A DNA stretch of 64,000 nt, from assembly GCA_039714595.1 (NCBI GenBank), contig JBDLJA010000001.1, positions 20,459 through 84,458 on the forward strand, read 5' to 3'. The position numbers were made by a program, and so were the translations under genes. Below the pieces are notes generated by a model. The model searched no databases, was not told the origin of the DNA, and was given only the letters and a program-made list of their open reading frames with translations. The DNA is from Thermodesulfobacteriota bacterium (lineage in GTDB: Bacteria > Desulfobacterota > Desulfobulbia > Desulfobulbales > SURF-16). Every line of letters starts with the position of its first letter. The first letter of the stretch is position 1. Below are positions 30,482 through 47,865 of this stretch, piece by piece.

Positions 30482-30811
30482 ATGTTAGAAGTTACATCTC
30501 TCGCAATCGAGAACCTTAAAAGCTATCTGGAGCAGAATAATATCAATTCTGCCATCCGCATCGCTCTGATGCAGGGCGGCTGAGCTGGCCCCTCCCTGGG
30601 CTTGGCTCTGGATGAGTCAAAAGATAATGATGAGATAGCAGAACACGATGACCTTACCTTTCTGGTTGAGAAAAGTCTCATGACCAGCTGTGGTGACATA
30701 AAGGTCGATTTCATGGATGCCGGGCCGCGCTCAGGCTTTGCCATCTCGTCCACAAATCCGTTAGGCGGTGGTGCATCTGGCTGTGGCAGCTGTGGCAGCT
30801 CCTGCGGCTAA
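30482..30811 (+). CDS. HesB/IscA-like selenoprotein (in-frame UGA at 30581-30583 read as Sec)
   Basis: AGGAGG (30469-30474) sits 7 nt before ATG 30482. 33 codons (MLEVTSLAIENLKSYLEQNNINSAIRIALMQGG) run into TGA, and the same frame continues as AGPSLGLALDE...IKVDFMDAGPRSGFAISS...GCGSCGSSCG. GG-U-AG aligns with the conserved GGC(A/S)G Cys of HesB/IscA. A stable hairpin begins at the UGA. Confidence 0.8.
30582..30608 (+). promoter_or_regulatory. SECIS-like stem-loop for the HesB-like gene
   Basis: GAGCUGGCCC-CUCCCU-GGGCU(U)GGCUC: a 10-bp stem with one bulged U, starting at the GA of the UGA codon. Confidence 0.55.
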
Positions 30812-30830
30812 CCCCCCTTAACTCGCGATA

Positions 30831-30875
30831 AAAAAATCCCGTTTCAGCCTGGCCTGAAACGGGATTTTTTATTTT
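30831..30875. terminator. Bidirectional rho-independent terminator shared by the convergent genes on either side
   Basis: Perfect 13-bp stem AATCCCGTTTCAG (30835-30847) / CTGAAACGGGATT (30854-30866), with an A-run upstream and a T-run downstream. Confidence 0.85.
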
Positions 30876-31086
30876 AAGATCCGCAGCTGGCCATAACCTC
30901 TTCCTGCCACTGCTCAATCTGCTCCTCATAGAACCTGGCGTCACTTTCCATCCCGCACTCCAGGCAGGACACGCGGGCGAAAGCTCAACGCCCCTTAAGG
31001 ACAGCCCTGCCCCGGCAATAGATACAACGCAAGACCAACTCCAACTCCGCCCAACCCGCCGCCTCTCTGGTGCAATCCTGTGCCAT
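30874..31086 (-). CDS. Candidate small Zn-ribbon (CxxC...CxxC) protein with an in-frame UGA (possible novel selenoprotein)
   Basis: My translation from ATG comp(31084-31086), preceded by AAGGGGTGG: MAQDCTREAAGWAELELVLRCIYCRGRAVLKGR-UGA-AFARVSCLECGMESDARFYEEQIEQWQEEVMASCGS-TAA. The stop abuts the bidirectional terminator, and a 40-nt hairpin follows the UGA. Not in the ORF track. Confidence 0.35.
30944..30983 (-). promoter_or_regulatory. 40-nt stem-loop immediately 3' of the UGA in the Zn-ribbon ORF (SECIS-like)
   Basis: CUUUC-G-CCCGC-[GU(G)UCC-UGCCU-GGAGU]-GCGGG-AUG-GAAAG, starting 1 nt after the UGA. Confidence 0.4.
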
Positions 31087-31610
31087 TATTACCACCCCTT
31101 ATTTTAAACGAGACAACTTCCCCGGCCCTCCCTCACCCCTTGCCCATCTCTTTTGCTAACACAGACCGGAATTTCTGGCAGCAGAGAAGAGAGTAAATCA
31201 AGAAAAAGTTAGACAAAAGCCACCTTGTCTGGTGATTAAAATGAATAGCCATTCACAAAGACAAAATAGACTTGACAGCGACCTAATAGTATGATTTTCT
31301 GCTGCACGCAAGAGGTCCATAAGCGTTCATTAAATTGTTGAAATTGTAATTTTGCCAAAAGCTTACAAACTACACTTCAACAGAGTATTGGACCCCTTAA
31401 CTTTTGACTTATATGTAAAGCGGGCAACGAGACAGAGCGTAGCCTCCCCCCTAAACCAGGGGAGATATATCTGTCCAGTCCTTACATAACTTATTGCAGT
31501 TGTTAATTATTATTGCCATCGTGGCAGGCTGCCTTAATAAAGACCATGCACCAAAGGCAACACCAAGGTCTAACGGCTGGCTACCTGGCACCACTGAAGG
31601 GAGAGATATA

Positions 31611-32369
31611 ATGAAAGTTGATGATCTGGAAAAGCTCAAGAACGAAGGTGTAGAGAATCTTCCTTCTGAGGAACGGCGCCGCTTCCTGCAATTTGGCCTA
31701 ACCGTAACCGGCGTCTTCCTGGGCGGTTCCGTCCTGTCGCTGACCTCCGCAGGCAATGTTCAAGGCGCTGTGGGCGGCATGAAACCGGCCAGCAAGTTTC
31801 CTTACAACCCGCATTACACCATGGTTATCCGCCAGAACCACTGTGTGGATTGTGAGCTCTGCAAAGACGCCTGTGTCGCCACCAATCATGTTCCTTCCTA
31901 CGGCTACCGGACCACCATCCTGGAGCGGGAGCGGGCCATCGGCCCCGACGCTACCGAGCGCATCTTCATGCCAGTCCTCTGCAATCACTGTAACCGTCCT
32001 CCCTGTGTTCGGGTCTGCCCCACCACGGCGACCTTTAAGGACAAGAAGACCGGCATCGTTATGATGAACACCAAGCGCTGCATCGGTTGCAAAACCTGTA
32101 TGGCAGCCTGCCCTTACAATGCCCGTTATTTTGATGAAGACAAGCGGACCATCGACAAGTGTAACTTCTGCGTCGACACCAAATTAAAAGAGAGCGGCGG
32201 CAAGATCACCGCCTGTGCTGAGGCGTGCCCGGCCAATGTCCGTATCTTTGGCGACCTTGCCGATCCCAGCAGCGAGGCCTATAAACTGATCCATTCACCC
32301 GAGAAGGTGGTATGGGTACTGCGTCCGGAGACAGGCGCCCTGCCCAACGTCTTCTACATGAATGACTAA
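31611..32369 (+). CDS. Tat-exported 4x[4Fe-4S] ferredoxin-type subunit (NrfC/PsrB/DsrO/HybA family)
   Basis: Start at MKVDDLE (ATG 31611, GAAGGGAGAG SD). Twin-arginine signal SEERRRFLQFGL. Four Cys clusters (CVDCELCKDAC, CNHCNRPPC, CIGCKTCMAACP, CNFC...CAEACP). Confidence 0.85.
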   Translation: MKVDDLEKLKNEGVENLPSEERRRFLQFGLTVTGVFLGGSVLSLTSAGNVQGAVGGMKPASKFPYNPHYTMVIRQNHCVDCELCKDACVATNHVPSYGYRTTILERERAIGPDATERIFMPVLCNHCNRPPCVRVCPTTATFKDKKTGIVMMNTKRCIGCKTCMAACPYNARYFDEDKRTIDKCNFCVDTKLKESGGKITACAEACPANVRIFGDLADPSSEAYKLIHSPEKVVWVLRPETGALPNVFYMND

Positions 32370-32485
32370 GGATAGATTTCTACCTCGCCCGCAGTTAAGG
32401 GAAAGAAAAAATATTGTCTGGATATCTCCCCTGCCCTACCAGGGTCAGGGGAGATAACAGAACAGTAGGTTTGGAGAGAAAAACA

Positions 32486-33178
32486 ATGAAAGATAAGAAG
32501 ATGAAAAACATTCTGCTTGGCGCCCTTGGCACCATATTCTGCCTGGGTTGCGTCACCGCCAGCCTTGCTTCAGCTCCTAAGAAGGGTGGGGAGACGGTAA
32601 TCCATAGCCATGGCGACACCCAGATCATCGCCGAAAAGCCCACTCGCGAGATGTTCAGCCACGCCCTCCACTTTGGCCAACTGGATTTAAGCTGTGACTC
32701 CTGTCACCCCGACACCTTCCAAAAGAAGCGTGGCGCGGCTAAGGCCAAGGGCGACTACACCATGAAGGCGTTTGCCGAGGGTAAGTATTGCGGGACCTGC
32801 CACGATGGCGACACCGCCTTCAGCGCCAACTCCCAGTGCTCCAGCTGTCATATCGCCCCCGAAAAAGAGAACATGTACTTCAACAAACCGGCCAAGACGG
32901 TTGAGTTTGGCCACAAGGCCCATATTGACATGGGCCTGGAGTGCGAACAGTGTCACAACGAAAAGGGTTTTGAGATGCGTTCCGGCGCAGCCGAAGAGCA
33001 TCCTGAATCCTTCACCATGCAGGCCCTCTATGACGGCAAATATTGCGGCTCCTGCCACAATGGCGATGACGCCTTTGCCTCCAACACCCGCTGTACCGTC
33101 TGTCACATCGGGGTTAAGGGCTTTGACCGCCTGAACGGTGGCGACTCTGGCGCTGCCGGCCACGGTGGTGGCCACTAA
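32486..33178 (+). CDS. Periplasmic hexahaem c-type cytochrome built from two c7-type trihaem modules
   Basis: Start at MKDKKMKNILL (ATG 32486, GGAGAG SD) with a signal peptide. Six CxxCH motifs: CDSCH, CGTCH, CSSCH, CEQCH, CGSCH, CTVCH. The pattern GKYCG(T/S)CH(D/N)GD.AF..N..C..CHI occurs twice. Confidence 0.85.
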   Translation: MKDKKMKNILLGALGTIFCLGCVTASLASAPKKGGETVIHSHGDTQIIAEKPTREMFSHALHFGQLDLSCDSCHPDTFQKKRGAAKAKGDYTMKAFAEGKYCGTCHDGDTAFSANSQCSSCHIAPEKENMYFNKPAKTVEFGHKAHIDMGLECEQCHNEKGFEMRSGAAEEHPESFTMQALYDGKYCGSCHNGDDAFASNTRCTVCHIGVKGFDRLNGGDSGAAGHGGGH

Positions 33179-33229
33179 GATAAAGTCAACTTAAGGGGCA
33201 GATCAGCCCCACTAGCCAAGACTTTTATG

Positions 33230-33288
33230 AAAAAGACCGTCTCCCCCGCCTTTAAGGCGATCAAGGGGTAGGCGGTCTTTTTATTTTC
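33230..33288 (+). terminator. Rho-independent terminator after the cytochrome gene
   Basis: AAAAAGACCGTCTCCCC (33230-33246) pairs with GGGGTAGGCGGTCTTTTT (33265-33282) with two mismatches, followed by TTTTTATTTT. Confidence 0.65.
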
Positions 33289-33592
33289 AGCCCCCACACT
33301 TGCAAATCATCCCTTCATATCTTCTGCCCCCCAACCGCCCCTGGCCCCTCTGGCCCGCAATCACCCCTTTTAGCCAATAACCGCCGCAATCTCCACCTGC
33401 TCCATCAATATCCAGTCTACGCTGTTCGGCCACTTTTGCGCCCGCCTGCCGCAGCCAAAGACGCAAAACACTCCCAGCCCCTGCAAATTACCTGCCCCCC
33501 GCCACTGTCAAACAACTGTGGCAAAGACAATGAACAACGTATTCCGGGCCAGTTAGCCCACAAGTATATTTTTTCAACCGACCTCCTTCTTG

Positions 33593-33609
33593 TGGCACAC
33601 CAGTTGCAT
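33593..33609 (+). promoter_or_regulatory. Sigma-54 (-24/-12) promoter for the nrfD-like gene
   Basis: TGGCAC-ACCAG-TTGCAT matches the TGGCAC-N5-TTGCW consensus exactly, with correct GG-N10-GC spacing. It lies about 110 nt upstream of ATG 33719. Confidence 0.7.
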
Positions 33610-33718
33610 TGCTAGCTGGCATTAATTGCTAACCCAAGTAATTGTCACTGGTCCCAGGGCGACAACTCCCCTTTTGCCGGTGACCACTTTAATTCCCTTA
33701 TTTGAGGAGGAGTAGAAA

Positions 33719-34906
33719 ATGGCTGATGGATTCTCTTTGGCTGCCACAGCGGAACCAACAGTGGCAACCCCAAAGCTCAACACCTACACGGGCGTCTTTG
33801 CCCTGATCGCCCTGATCGGCGTCACTGCCGGTCTCTATGGCTTTTTCGCCGGGCATCATCATATCTATAACAACACTCGGGAGATGCCCTGGGGTATTCT
33901 CATCTCAACCTACGCCTTCCTGGCCATTACCTCCACCGGCCTCTGTGTCCTGGCTGCCATCAGTCACATCTATGGCGGCACCAAGCTGGCGCCTCTGGCC
34001 AATCGCATGGTATGGCTGTCGCTGATCACCATTATCGGCGGTTTTACCCTCATCGGCCTGGAGCTTGAAAACCCCTGGCGCATGGCGATCTACAACATCC
34101 TCACCCCCAACCTTACCTCCAACATCTGGTGGATGGGTACCCTGTACGGCCTGGCCGTGGGTATGATGTTTGTCGAGTTCTACCTGATCCTGACCAAGCA
34201 GTATAAATGGGCCGTGGTCCTGGGTGTCATCGGCGCCCTGGCCGAGATGGCAGCCAATACCAACCTGGGTTCCGTATTCGCCTCCCTGGCTGGCCATCCC
34301 TTCTGGTTCGGCGCTCAAATCCCCATCTACTTCCTCGGTTGCGCCTTCCTCTCTGGCGCTGCTGCCACCATCCTCTTCACCTTCCTGGCCATGAAAATGC
34401 GGGATAGGGAGATCGATAGTGACACCATGGCCGCCTTCCAGACCGGTGGCAAGGTAATGGCCCTGGCCCTGCTCCTCATCGGCATCTCCACTGCCTGGCG
34501 CTACATCAACCTGATGAGTGGCGGCGCGGAACAGGCCCGTCTTGGTGCCCTGGCCATCCTGAACGGTCCCCTCTCCTTCAACTTCTGGGTATTTGAGATT
34601 GCCATCGGCATGATCTTCCCCTTAGGCCTGCTGGTTGTGACCAAGTTCAAGAGCGCTCCGGCCCTGGCCTTCTCCGCCTTTATGATCCTGGTGGGAATGT
34701 TTATCTCCCGCTACGACATGGTTGTAGCCGGGCAACTGCCGCCGGTCTATGGCGGCCTGGACAGCCACCTGCCCGCCCTCTTCACCTACGTCCCTTCTCT
34801 CTTTGAGATCCTGGTAACCGCAGGCGGATTCGGCATAATTGGTGCCGCCTTCCTGCTGGGTGAGCGTCTGTTTGGTCGCGCCTTTGACGACCACGGAGCC
34901 CACTGA
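33719..34906 (+). CDS. NrfD/PsrC-family integral membrane quinone-interacting subunit
   Basis: 395-aa polytopic ORF. The N-terminal REMPWGILISTYAFLAITSTG motif is typical of NrfD-like proteins. GAGGAGGAG SD. Confidence 0.8.
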   Translation: MADGFSLAATAEPTVATPKLNTYTGVFALIALIGVTAGLYGFFAGHHHIYNNTREMPWGILISTYAFLAITSTGLCVLAAISHIYGGTKLAPLANRMVWLSLITIIGGFTLIGLELENPWRMAIYNILTPNLTSNIWWMGTLYGLAVGMMFVEFYLILTKQYKWAVVLGVIGALAEMAANTNLGSVFASLAGHPFWFGAQIPIYFLGCAFLSGAAATILFTFLAMKMRDREIDSDTMAAFQTGGKVMALALLLIGISTAWRYINLMSGGAEQARLGALAILNGPLSFNFWVFEIAIGMIFPLGLLVVTKFKSAPALAFSAFMILVGMFISRYDMVVAGQLPPVYGGLDSHLPALFTYVPSLFEILVTAGGFGIIGAAFLLGERLFGRAFDDHGAH

Positions 34907-34928
34907 GCCAAGTGCGCCTTAGGCCATG

Positions 34929-34994
34929 GTCCCGGGGATAAGCCCGGGACCCGAAGCGATCAGGCCCCGCCTCTTAGCGGGAACTGATCGCTTC
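34929..34994. repeat. Two adjacent perfect GC-rich hairpins between nrfD-like and merR-like genes
   Basis: GGTCCCGGG/CCCGGGACC (34929-34952, 9 bp) and GAAGCGATCAG/CTGATCGCTTC (34954-34994, 11 bp, with an inner CCCGC/GCGGG stem). No U-run follows. Confidence 0.6.
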
Positions 34995-35045
34995 TCCCCT
35001 GTCACCTGATATTTGCCCCGGCTTGGGGCAGAGGAATCAAGCAAG

Positions 35046-35414
35046 ATGCTGCCAGACGACAAACCGGTCTTCACCATAGGCGTTGCCGCCAAGATGCTCG
35101 AGGTTCATCCCCGCACCCTGCGGATCTATGAGAAAGAGGGGCTGATTAAGCCCTTCCGTAAGGGGAAATGGCGCTACTTCACCATGGATGACATCAAATG
35201 GGTGGAGTGCTTACGCTCCATGATCCACGACAAGGGCATCTCCATTGCCGCGATCAAAAAACTGCTGCAATATACGCCGTGCTGGAACATAACGGATTGC
35301 GCCTTTGATAAACGCAAGCAGTGTACGGCCTTCATGGCCAATGGCATGGTACCGCGCAAGATAGAGGTGAGCCAGCCGGACAAAAAGATCGCCAACCTCC
35401 ACGATCACCGCTAG
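35046..35414 (+). CDS. MerR-family transcriptional regulator with a C-terminal Cys cluster
   Basis: Start at MLPDDKPVFTIG (ATG 35046, GAGGAA SD). HTH FTIGVAAKMLEVHPRTLRIYEKEGLI. C-terminal CWNITDCAFDKRKQC. Confidence 0.8.
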   Translation: MLPDDKPVFTIGVAAKMLEVHPRTLRIYEKEGLIKPFRKGKWRYFTMDDIKWVECLRSMIHDKGISIAAIKKLLQYTPCWNITDCAFDKRKQCTAFMANGMVPRKIEVSQPDKKIANLHDHR

Positions 35415-35533: not shown

Positions 35534-35848
35534 TCAATCCTTCTTATCTTCTTGCATGCGCGTCATATACTCCTCCCACTCATAGGGGAGAAGGTTCTTC
35601 TTCTTACTGTTACACTCCTTACAGGCACAGACTAGATTACCCTTACTGCTGGTTCCCCCCCGGGCCAGGGGCTGCAGGTGGTCCATGGTCAGCTGGGCCG
35701 GCTTGAAATGGCCCTGGCAGTAATAACAGGTACAGGCCGCAAGCTTATTCTGCCACCAGCGGCTCTTCCTGAGATCCCTCGCCTTTTGCCGCTCCCTCCG
35801 GATTACCGCCTCATCAACCCCATCAAAGAAATAGTCGTCTCTAGCCAT
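35534..35848 (-). CDS. Small HNH endonuclease-family protein
   Basis: 104-aa ORF. CYYCQGHFKPAQLTMDHLQPLARGGTSSKGNLVCACKECNSKK (HNH with two CxxC pairs). Confidence 0.8.
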   Translation of the reverse strand: MARDDYFFDGVDEAVIRRERQKARDLRKSRWWQNKLAACTCYYCQGHFKPAQLTMDHLQPLARGGTSSKGNLVCACKECNSKKKNLLPYEWEEYMTRMQEDKKD

Positions 35849-46950: not shown

Positions 46951-47865
46951 GGCTCCCACCTCTGTTAGTGGCTGGCAGTAGGTCGTCCGCAGGCGACCCT
47001 GAGCATGCATCCGGCCCTCTCAACCTATGGTTGAGGATGCGGAAGGGCTTTTTTTGCTGGCGGACCTGTTTCCGCCAGCCGATTTTCATCTAACTTCCAA
47101 GCAGGCCAGGTAACGAGACACACCAATTACTTAGGTCTTGACTGCTGGTGCGACCTCCCTGGCCTGTTACTAAAAATCTTTTTTCAAATACTTGAAGATG
47201 AAGTTGACCATCGGTAACGCCCTTTTGGCCGCCACCCTTCAAACTTTGTATTTTCGCGACCCCTCCTATCAGGTCCACAGGTTGTTTTTGTTGGCCTTGG
47301 GCAAACCCCGTTCTGCCAGAACCGGGGATAAACTGTTGGGAGTTTCCATGATCGCCTCTGATCATGGGAACCGTGAAGGTTATAAAAAAAGCTGGAGAGG
47401 AGATGGACCACCCTAAAACTTTTGTCCAGCAGCCGTTGCCCTTGTTAAAGATCAGCAACAGCCAAAGTCAAACTCCCTTCTCACCTTCTCAGACCACGGG
47501 CTTTACGCCCCTTGATTAATTTCTTGACCGGTTCTTTAAAGAGGAGTTGGCCCCCTTTGGTTGTTGCGGCCTTGGGAGACCCTTGTCCCCCGTTAGCATC
47601 TTTATTTGCAGGGTATGTGCCAGGGAAAAAACAATCTCGGAAAGACAACAAAATCAGGAAATTGGGCCGTGAAGCCGGGCCGGGCAACCGTCTCAGACCA
47701 CCCTATTGTTTACAGTTATCCGGAAATGAGAGGCAAATCGCAGAGAATTATCATATGAAACTCAATAGATAGACAGGAAGGGCGGGGGGGAGAATCCACT
47801 TCGGAAATCCGGAGAGAAACAGCCAAGCCCTGGGGCACCAAGGGAAAAGGCCATTGAAAGCATAG

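Follow-up and report, generated by a model that had tools for sequence, protein, structure and literature searches.

A 64,000-nucleotide stretch of a Thermodesulfobacteriota genome assigned to the order Desulfobulbales (assembly GCA_039714595.1, contig JBDLJA010000001.1, positions 20,459 to 84,458; hereafter the window) carries genes for an iron-sulfur protein, a secreted six-haem cytochrome c and an integral membrane protein of the NrfD family. These three proteins probably constitute a minimal oxidoreductase connecting the menaquinone pool with periplasmic cytochromes, in which the membrane anchor is regulated separately from the periplasmic subunits. The proposal builds on the subunit types, the export signals, the absence of a catalytic partner, the conserved terminator, sigma-54 and activator elements, and a four-cysteine MerR-type regulator, all of which can be read from the compared sequences. 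The three genes, the terminator and the 540-bp spacer between the cytochrome and NrfD genes (33179-33718) had been placed by an initial annotation made from the sequence alone, and all are present at the same positions, the genes being confirmed by the open reading frame listing and profile searches; the domain matches agree with the subunit identities proposed there (NrfC-like, hexahaem c7x2 and NrfD-like). The extent given for the unit, 31611-34906, holds for the three genes but stops short of its end, as the sigma-54 unit runs on to a MerR-type gene that had been missed (Table 1).

Table 1. Positions in the window of the module genes and of the elements associated with their expression.
Feature	Position	Strand	Remarks
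Candidate sigma-70-type promoter of the iron-sulfur/cytochrome operon	31267-31295	+	From a consensus scan; TAGACT-17 bp-TATGAT
Iron-sulfur subunit gene, NrfC/PsrB/DsrO/TtrB type	31611-32369	+	252 aa; four [4Fe-4S]-type Cys motifs
Secreted six-haem cytochrome c gene	32486-33178	+	230 aa; signal peptide; six CxxCH; two tandem c7-type trihaem domains
Intrinsic (rho-independent) terminator	33230-33288	+	Hairpin followed by U-tract; UUUUUAUUUU
C-rich, G-poor tract	33289-33520	+	Between the terminator and the sigma-54 promoter
Degenerate match to the activator palindrome	33428-33442		GGCCACTTTTGCGCC; at -165
Degenerate match to the activator palindrome	33460-33474		GACGCAAAACACTCC; at -133
Sigma-54 (-24/-12) promoter of the NrfD-MerR unit	33593-33608	+	TGGCACACCAGTTGCA; perfect TGGCAC-N5-TTGCW
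NrfD-family integral membrane subunit gene, ActC-like	33719-34906	+	395 aa; ten transmembrane helices in the model
Two GC-rich hairpins without U-tract, NrfD-MerR intergenic region	34925-34995	+	Read from the sequence
MerR-family regulator gene (HspR-like helix-turn-helix)	35046-35414	+	Pfam MerR_1; four invariant cysteines

A protein search recovered more than 1300 relatives (clusters) of the NrfD protein, the top 120 of which are at least 59% identical to it, with the named ones belonging almost entirely to the Desulfobulbales. A genome scan identified 510 encoding loci, 79 of which were fetched as the comparison set (designated by L-numbers), and the carriers among the compared loci include the cultured Desulfobulbus rhabdoformis, D. 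elongatus, Desulfogranum japonicum and D. mediterraneum. Gene layout was determined by mapping four window proteins onto the related loci and clustering all of their reading frames. The canonical order consists of an NrfD paralogue (approximately 40% identical) with its own MerR gene, a divergent gene encoding approximately 820 aa, the iron-sulfur protein gene followed by that of the c7 cytochrome, a spacer of 1.0-1.3 kb, a gene for a 75-77-aa membrane protein, the NrfD gene followed by the MerR gene, and finally housekeeping genes. The iron-sulfur, cytochrome and NrfD genes are neighbours in approximately 57 of the roughly 63 loci with enough upstream sequence. Most related loci carry the divergent gene, the small membrane protein gene and the second NrfD copy. 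The product of the divergent gene combines four PAS domains, a Sigma54_activat AAA+ domain and an HTH_8 (Fis-type helix-turn-helix) domain, an architecture that identifies it as a sigma-54 activator (bacterial enhancer-binding protein). The 75-77-aa protein has a shared motif (SEAFWFxxSLxLFxxxGPFSxxAVxxGL) and no Pfam match, and may be a fourth subunit; its gene is located between the sigma-54 promoter and the NrfD gene in most relatives (for example L001 7575-7802, L044 6726-6959 and L004 6630-6851), and after the MerR gene in some lineages, where the leader is then shorter.

The translated iron-sulfur protein contains a twin-arginine translocation (Tat) signal, EERRRFLQFG with the RRRF core, and 16 cluster cysteines. 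It is matched by Pfam Fer4_11 (E-value 1.4e-23) and aligns over nearly its full length with the NCBIfam families TtrB, NrfC and DsrO (E-values 1e-48 to 1e-51), scoring below every one of the curated equivalog cut-offs for these families. Its closest solved relative is PsrB of the Thermus polysulfide reductase (2vpw_B, E-value 1.6e-40). A Tat-exported four-cluster partner beside NrfD characterizes the NrfCD-type module, and this adjacency is found in the window and in most of the 79 loci.

The cytochrome contains two TIGR04257 (c7 trihaem) domains, scoring 125 bits against a cut-off of 40, and also matches Pfam Cytochrome_C7. An internal duplication had been noticed in the initial annotation, and the motif on which it was based does occur twice in the translation, with the two halves being 39% identical (E-value 7e-20). 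The closest solved relative is the Geobacter c7 polymer GSU1996 (3ov0, E-value 2.4e-49), and the tandem domains above the curated cut-off place the protein in the GSU1996 family of c7 polymers. Orthologues in the related loci have three haems in 38 loci, six in 23 and nine in three, so the number of c7 units varies within the family (one, two or three). The nine-haem form, with three c7 units, is encoded in L031, L036 and L050, all of which have the three module genes in one contiguous operon.

The membrane protein scores 85 bits with the Pfam NrfD profile (cut-off 25.8), while its scores for named subfamilies are negligible (NrfD 35.1 bits, HmcC 29 and DsrP 26.8). A sequence search of solved structures was empty, and a fold search was therefore used. 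The AlphaFold model, built with 48 homologues, has a mean predicted local distance difference test score (pLDDT) of 85.6, a predicted template modelling score (pTM) of 0.89 and ten helices, and was compared with the PDB using Foldseek, with template modelling (TM) scores normalised to the query. The best matches are four structures of ActC from alternative complex III (6btm_C, 6lod_C, 8k9e_C and 6f0k_C; TM 0.77-0.81, E-values 1e-9 to 1e-11), followed by ActF (TM about 0.6, E-values 1e-5 to 1e-6) and the eight-helix PsrC (TM 0.42, E-value 3.9e-5); the likeness to ActC is at the level of fold only, with a sequence identity of 15-18%. The Pfam score and the model together place the protein in the NrfD family, which is characterized by two four-helix bundles devoid of cofactor motifs, and a published survey of the family lists ActC, ActF, QrcD, DsrP, HybB and NhcC among its ten-helix members. 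Several polar or charged residues within the helices are invariant in the 48 homologues (for example E115, R121, E153, E176, N180, K245 and E293), a pattern compatible with a proton path, and the protein is presumed from the model to hold a quinone/quinol site. In an exact look-up, neither the window protein nor its two closest database proteins (P0001 and P0003) were on record.

No catalytic subunit is encoded next to the module in the window, as the initial annotation had noted. That annotation named a catalytic gene beside orthologous clusters as one observation that would overturn it; such a gene was looked for and found in none of the 79 related loci. The conserved downstream neighbours encode ribosomal protein S20, the trp operon, a pentapeptide protein, PrmA, a DUF748 protein and an acyltransferase (the names PrmA and DUF748 are taken from precomputed Pfam marks), none of them respiratory-catalytic. 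We propose that the complex would be a pared-down member of the group formed by alternative complex III, Qrc and the Cbc complexes, with the ten-helix ActC-like protein binding quinone or quinol at the periplasmic face, from where electrons would pass via the Tat-exported four-[4Fe-4S] protein to the soluble six-haem c7-type cytochrome. The cytochrome would form the end of the chain, connecting to other periplasmic redox proteins with no separate catalytic subunit being required, and electrons could flow either way, in quinol oxidation or in quinone reduction.

The second part of the proposal concerns expression, for which the spacer between the cytochrome and NrfD genes is central. The terminator predicted there by the initial annotation is strong: its hairpin folds at -32.5 kcal/mol (z -5.4), with none of 200 shuffles being as stable, and precedes a U-tract. 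Of the 57 loci with long spacers, 49 have a stable hairpin with a T-tract no more than 250 nt beyond the stop codon of the cytochrome gene. A sigma-54 promoter of its own had likewise been proposed for the NrfD gene, and TGGCAC-N5-TTGCA at 33593-33608 is the sole perfect match on either strand of the window, for which 0.08 are expected; at least one perfect match arises in 8 of 100 shuffles of the window. Since the site is conserved in relatives, a chance origin is very unlikely: in 66 of 77 loci the orthologous NrfD gene is preceded by a sigma-54 element that deviates from the consensus by no more than one mismatch. Upstream of the iron-sulfur protein gene no sigma-54 promoter was found in any of 62 loci, and a strict site was absent upstream of the second NrfD paralogue in all three testable loci. 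Elsewhere in the window, two elements resembling the sigma-54 site with one mismatch occur on the minus strand, at 47622 (TGGCACATACCCTGCA) and 5540 (TGGCCCATGAGTTGCA).

The initial annotation presented the split between the membrane subunit and its periplasmic partners as an unusual interruption, a view contradicted by the counts given above, which show a split arrangement to be conserved and the norm in this family, and not peculiar to the source genome. Its further point, that the partners would be expressed from different promoters, gains support from the same comparison, in which the terminator and the sigma-54 site recur in front of NrfD and the latter is absent in front of the iron-sulfur protein gene. 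The iron-sulfur/cytochrome transcript would start at a sigma-70-type promoter and end at the strong intrinsic terminator, and the anchor would be made, together with the four-cysteine MerR-type regulator, from the sigma-54 promoter only when the PAS-domain activator is triggered by a cytoplasmic signal, probably one related to redox state. The amount of quinone-coupled complex would therefore depend on the supply of the anchor.

Sites for such an activator are apparent in the relatives. Palindromes of the form GGCGCA-N3-TGCGCC occur in pairs separated by 34 bp, with fixed positions of -182 and -148 relative to the sigma-54 element (for example in L005, L009, L060 and L062), often with a third copy near -310 to -320, and the best palindrome match has no more than two arm mismatches in 41 of 62 loci as compared to approximately 0.6 of 62 in shuffled sequences. 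Tandem palindromes at a fixed distance from a promoter are the expected signature of tandem activator-binding sites, and the divergently encoded four-PAS sigma-54 activator very probably binds to these pairs.

Between the terminator and the sigma-54 promoter, the window has its strongest excess of C over G (45% C and 14% G at 33301-33500), and a C-over-G stretch directly follows the cytochrome stop codon in many related loci. The initial annotation described this region as a C-rich leader of 430 nt; the C-rich tract exists, however it lies upstream of the promoter, and the NrfD leader is therefore only about 100 nt in length, with the ATG of NrfD located 126 nt downstream of the first base of the sigma-54 element. 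This short leader folds no better than shuffled sequences (z -1.7). The tract at 33289-33520 may be a Rho-loading zone, activator-binding DNA or both. A conserved noncoding RNA or leader within the spacer was considered and rejected, as the spacer resembles no related locus at the nucleotide level, not even the closest one, whose proteins are 86-88% identical. Searches with Rfam at gathering thresholds returned nothing meaningful over the whole window, and at E-values up to 1 returned only terminator-like fragments over 30700-35100; no tRNAs were found in the window. A hidden gene for the small membrane protein was rejected as well, there being no credible tblastn match to the 75-77-aa protein anywhere in the window; the best match (E-value 0.007) falls inside the riboflavin synthase gene, on the opposite strand. 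A comparable arrangement was observed upstream of the module, where a perfect bidirectional terminator with a 17-bp stem (30831-30870) ends an IscA-like gene and is followed by a C-rich tract at 30900-31150 (42% C and 17% G), such that the iron-sulfur/cytochrome operon has, on either side, an intergenic region with a terminator followed by a C-rich tract. A repeat common to the tracts at 30900-31150 and 33290-33520 was looked for and rejected, the two having no significant similarity; a Rho-loading role is possible.

The promoter of the iron-sulfur/cytochrome operon is a candidate from sequence comparison. The -35 hexamer of the scan, TAGACT, overlaps TTGACA at 31272-31277, and many related loci have upstream of the iron-sulfur protein gene a conserved element, aaaat-(T)TGACTTGACA ('aaaat..CTTGACA'), followed by a -10-like hexamer; over 130 nt, the window stretch shares 80% identity with L003, the closest relative. 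In one sub-clade (L005, L007, L009, L011 and L012), a near-perfect 20-bp palindrome, AAACTACACATGTGTAGTTT, lies approximately 40 nt downstream of the CTTGACA element, and in another (L061, L072, L077 and L080) a TTGACA-N8/9-TGTCAA inverted repeat spans the -35 element and the spacer. Both repeats could be operators, possibly for the MerR-type protein, and neither is present in the window.

The MerR-type gene probably starts at the ATG at 35046, which is preceded by AGAGGAA at a distance of 139 nt from the end of NrfD; the scan called no terminator in the interval, and the two genes are probably co-transcribed. The hairpins in this intergenic region have the arms GGTCCCGGG...CCCGGGACC and GAAGCGATCAG...CTGATCGCTTC, and transcript processing, stabilisation and partial attenuation are possibilities for their role. 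The protein scores 60.6 bits with MerR_1 (cut-off 21.6) and 66 bits with HspR (cut-off 105), its resemblance to HspR being confined to the DNA-binding domain. A MerR gene directly follows NrfD in nearly all related loci. Four cysteines, C66, C90, C96 and C104 (numbered from 35013), are invariant in the 73 copies beside the main NrfD gene and approximately 96-98% conserved in the 45 copies beside its paralogue, with the spacing C-X23-C-X5-C-X7-C and a conserved TPCWN motif; we know of no description of such a motif for HspR. The four-cysteine subfamily always adjoins a gene of the NrfD family and has been annotated merely as 'MerR/HspR'. The cysteines are suspected of binding an iron-sulfur cluster or forming a metal sensor site. 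The AlphaFold model of the protein is confident only in the helix-turn-helix, with pLDDT below 50 at residues 92-96 and 112-133.

Several observations weigh against the proposed oxidoreductase and its split control. The terminator after the cytochrome gene may be read through. The palindromes in the window have three and four arm mismatches and, taken alone, are only marginally better than shuffled sequence; since these sites are degenerate and the activator gene is missing from the 64 kb, this locus may be regulated differently, or its regulation may be in decay. The scores of the NrfD protein are far short of all NCBIfam equivalog cut-offs and its sequence matches no PDB entry at E-values up to 1, so we infer quinone binding from the fold only. 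Furthermore, NrfD-MerR pairs occur without a nearby iron-sulfur/cytochrome pair in L004, L055, L056 and L060 and as a second copy in L022, and the anchor may therefore have a role apart from that pair.

In line with this last point, NrfD and MerR could form a unit independent of the periplasmic pair, for example a membrane sensor or transporter, with the adjacency being historical. The promoter, upstream terminator and regulator of its own agree with such a unit, as do the loci with a solitary NrfD-MerR pair and the published finding that ActF is an NrfD-like subunit of alternative complex III that binds no quinone. However, in eight loci (L029, L031, L032, L036, L038, L050, L070 and L079) the three genes are contiguous, with gaps of 60-115 bp, no sigma-54 site and, in five of the eight, no MerR gene either; among the genomic observations, these tight operons speak most strongly for a joint function of the three proteins. 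The adjacency of the module genes is also kept across families of the order, with NrfD identities as low as 56%, and the published survey knows NrfD-family proteins otherwise only as partners of such iron-sulfur subunits. An independent unit is distinctly unlikely.

A second alternative arises from the reduced form of the locus in the window, which is without the second NrfD copy, the four-PAS activator and the 75-77-aa gene within 64 kb, and has a spacer of 540 bp compared to the usual 1.0-1.3 kb. The spacer could be a deletion scar left by the loss of the small gene and most of the leader, with the sigma-54 unit poorly expressed or non-functional. The missing activator and small membrane protein genes and the activator sites, which are degenerate and shifted by approximately 16 bp, would suit such decay, but the NrfD and MerR frames are intact with all family-invariant residues kept, and the sigma-54 promoter matches the consensus perfectly. 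L003, the closest relative with proteins 86-88% identical, shares this reduced gene set, and the assembly containing L003 also contains L004, a unit of the small protein, NrfD and MerR genes with a sigma-54 element identical to that of the window. The small gene may therefore be supplied from elsewhere, and a second copy elsewhere in the genome of the window is plausible. Given also that other lineages have moved the small gene to after MerR and have correspondingly short leaders, a decaying locus appears highly unlikely.

The paralogous NrfD genes allow an extension of the preferred reading that does not contradict it, in which a single periplasmic module docks on either of two ActC-like anchors, each with its four-cysteine MerR, letting the cell shift the energetics or direction of quinone coupling. 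Most loci have a second NrfD gene (approximately 40% identical) with a MerR of its own and only one iron-sulfur/cytochrome pair, and extra NrfD-MerR copies exist in the genomes of L004, L022 and L060. The absence of a strict sigma-54 site from the second paralogue, in all three loci where this could be tested, suggests different control, and Geobacter is known to use different inner-membrane quinone oxidoreductases in different windows of redox potential. On the other side, the evidence for interchangeable anchors consists of gene content, the second paralogue is not in the window, and the paralogues could serve unrelated partners; we consider the idea possible, if doubtful. An order-wide respiratory switch would take it further and is equally tentative: a constitutive periplasmic 'plug' would reach the quinone pool by way of alternative ActC-like anchors, one of them induced by the four-PAS sigma-54 activator, and each co-transcribed with a cluster- or metal-bearing four-cysteine MerR. 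If true, redox state would pick the anchor and hence the mode of energy coupling or the direction of electron flow, in parallel to the potential-dependent choice among ImcH, CbcL and CbcBA in Geobacter, but by means of a single-subunit swap.

The proposed minimal oxidoreductase shares several features with alternative complex III. ActC is the best structural match of the ten-helix subunit, the iron-sulfur protein matches the iron-sulfur domain of ActB (E-value about 1e-17), and the cytochrome weakly matches the c7-like ActA (8k9e_A, E-value 3.8e-4); in the published complex, the quinol site is expected at the periplasmic face beside the iron-sulfur subunit. In contrast to alternative complex III, the module described here has no molybdopterin-like ActB1 domain, no ActD or ActE, and no second NrfD-like ActF within the operon, its iron-sulfur protein has 252 aa as compared to 930-1040 aa for ActB, and conservation extends to just three structural genes. 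Its cytochrome is of the soluble kind, a c7 dimer, whereas ActA is a membrane-anchored pentahaem protein, and the separate sigma-54 promoter is a further difference.

Cbc4 (CbcSTU) of Geobacter sulfurreducens likewise consists of a multihaem cytochrome, a four-[4Fe-4S] protein and a membrane subunit, without a catalytic one, and is regarded as a quinol:cytochrome c oxidoreductase whose role has yet to be established. CbcS, however, is a membrane-anchored NapC/NirT-type tetrahaem cytochrome, while the cytochrome encoded here is a secreted c7 hexahaem protein; CbcT and CbcU are likened by description only. A strong precedent for the regulatory logic of the sigma-54 unit is found in Geobacter cbcBA, a quinone oxidoreductase operon induced only at low redox potential, which has a sigma-54 promoter, the divergent activator BccR, hypothetical proteins at its head and a terminator at its end. 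CbcBA differs in using a dihaem cytochrome b in place of an NrfD-type protein, BccR has a receiver domain where the activator of the related loci has four PAS domains, and no MerR gene has been reported with cbcBA.

A 2026 study of cable bacteria described in these organisms and in some Desulfobulbales a TMH1-DsrOh-DsrPh-tetrahaem locus as a 'candidate alternative complex III', also without a catalytic subunit and proposed to transfer electrons from quinol to periplasmic cytochromes. That locus thus belongs to the same bacterial order and encodes the same kind of module, with a DsrO-like iron-sulfur protein, an NrfD-family protein of ten helices, a multihaem cytochrome in the periplasm and a small membrane protein with a single span, TMH1, which is comparable to the 75-77-aa protein by position only. 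DsrPh clusters next to canonical DsrP, whereas the NrfD protein of the window scores 26.8 bits against the DsrP cut-off of 350; the DsrOhPh cytochrome is a His/His tetrahaem protein and not of the c7 type, and no split operon, sigma-54 promoter or MerR gene was reported for that locus.

QrcABCD, the menaquinone reductase of sulfate reducers, likewise contains a hexahaem cytochrome, an iron-sulfur protein and an NrfD-like subunit with ten helices, and its substrate and quinone sites are both periplasmic. The module here differs in that no molybdopterin-like QrcB subunit is encoded in the window or the related loci and the operon is not contiguous; the scores are 97 against a cut-off of 400 for QrcC (E-value 1.2e-27) and 28 against 180 for QrcA (E-value 1.2e-6), and the QrcD profile gave no match. 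For NrfABCD, the NrfC and NrfD scores of 171.8 and 35.1 are well below the cut-offs of 377.6 and 347.6, and no NrfA or NrfB gene was found in the window or the related loci. With respect to DsrJOP, the DsrO score is 165.7 against a cut-off of 200, the DsrP score falls short as given above, the cytochrome is of the c7 type, and no dsrMK genes are near the locus. The complex iron-sulfur molybdoenzyme reductases Psr, Phs, Ttr and Arr are characterized by a large catalytic subunit, and no large conserved neighbour of catalytic type occurs in the 79 loci. The 'nrfC/nrfD-like' genes of Desulfurivibrio in published transcriptomes were considered as the same locus and rejected, as they belong to a Psr-type cluster with a molybdopterin subunit.

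The module had initially been called an orphan, which is apt insofar as it has no catalytic subunit; the kind is nonetheless already recognised, in Cbc, in Methanoperedenaceae and in the DsrOhPh-tetrahaem locus of cable bacteria. The group 4 and 5 clusters of Methanoperedenaceae are menaquinone:cytochrome c oxidoreductases of the NrfD, FeS and multihaem type, and modules of this composition without a catalytic subunit are an accepted category. The locus fits the broad NrfCD-type module and lacks defining features of Nrf, Dsr, Qrc, alternative complex III, the molybdopterin reductases and Cbc4. No published description was found of this locus, or of a layout in which two promoters are combined with a four-PAS activator, paired palindromes and a four-cysteine MerR; complexes of this type are known, while the present family and its split control are undescribed.

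Members of the Desulfobulbales include sulfate reducers, sulfur disproportionators, sulfide oxidisers and cable bacteria. The link between the menaquinone pool and periplasmic cytochromes in this order is still unsettled, and the 2026 cable-bacteria study could merely speculate on the related DsrOhPh-tetrahaem locus. The family described here is widespread in the order and highly conserved, with a readable regulatory circuit that provides experimental handles in cultured Desulfobulbus and Desulfogranum strains. It also provides a naturally occurring case of a respiratory complex in which the availability of a single subunit may gate assembly, and the anchor-specific sigma-54 control and dedicated cysteine-rich MerR, with function and expression deduced from comparison, are noteworthy for specialists in anaerobic respiration.

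The genes flanking the module in the window have housekeeping functions and include proS, relA/spoT, pfk, an IscA-like gene, an HNH gene, folC, a uvrD-like helicase gene, a PHP gene and an ABC transporter ATPase gene. The HNH endonuclease is a stand-alone gene of 104 aa at 35534-35848 (-), between the MerR-type gene and folC. The IscA/HesB-type gene upstream of the module, at 30482-30811 (+), is broken by an in-frame TGA at 30581-30583, codon 34. With Cys placed at this codon, its product scores 141.5 bits with NF038090 ('IscA_HesB_Se'), above the cut-off of 85, and for that reason very probably contains selenocysteine.

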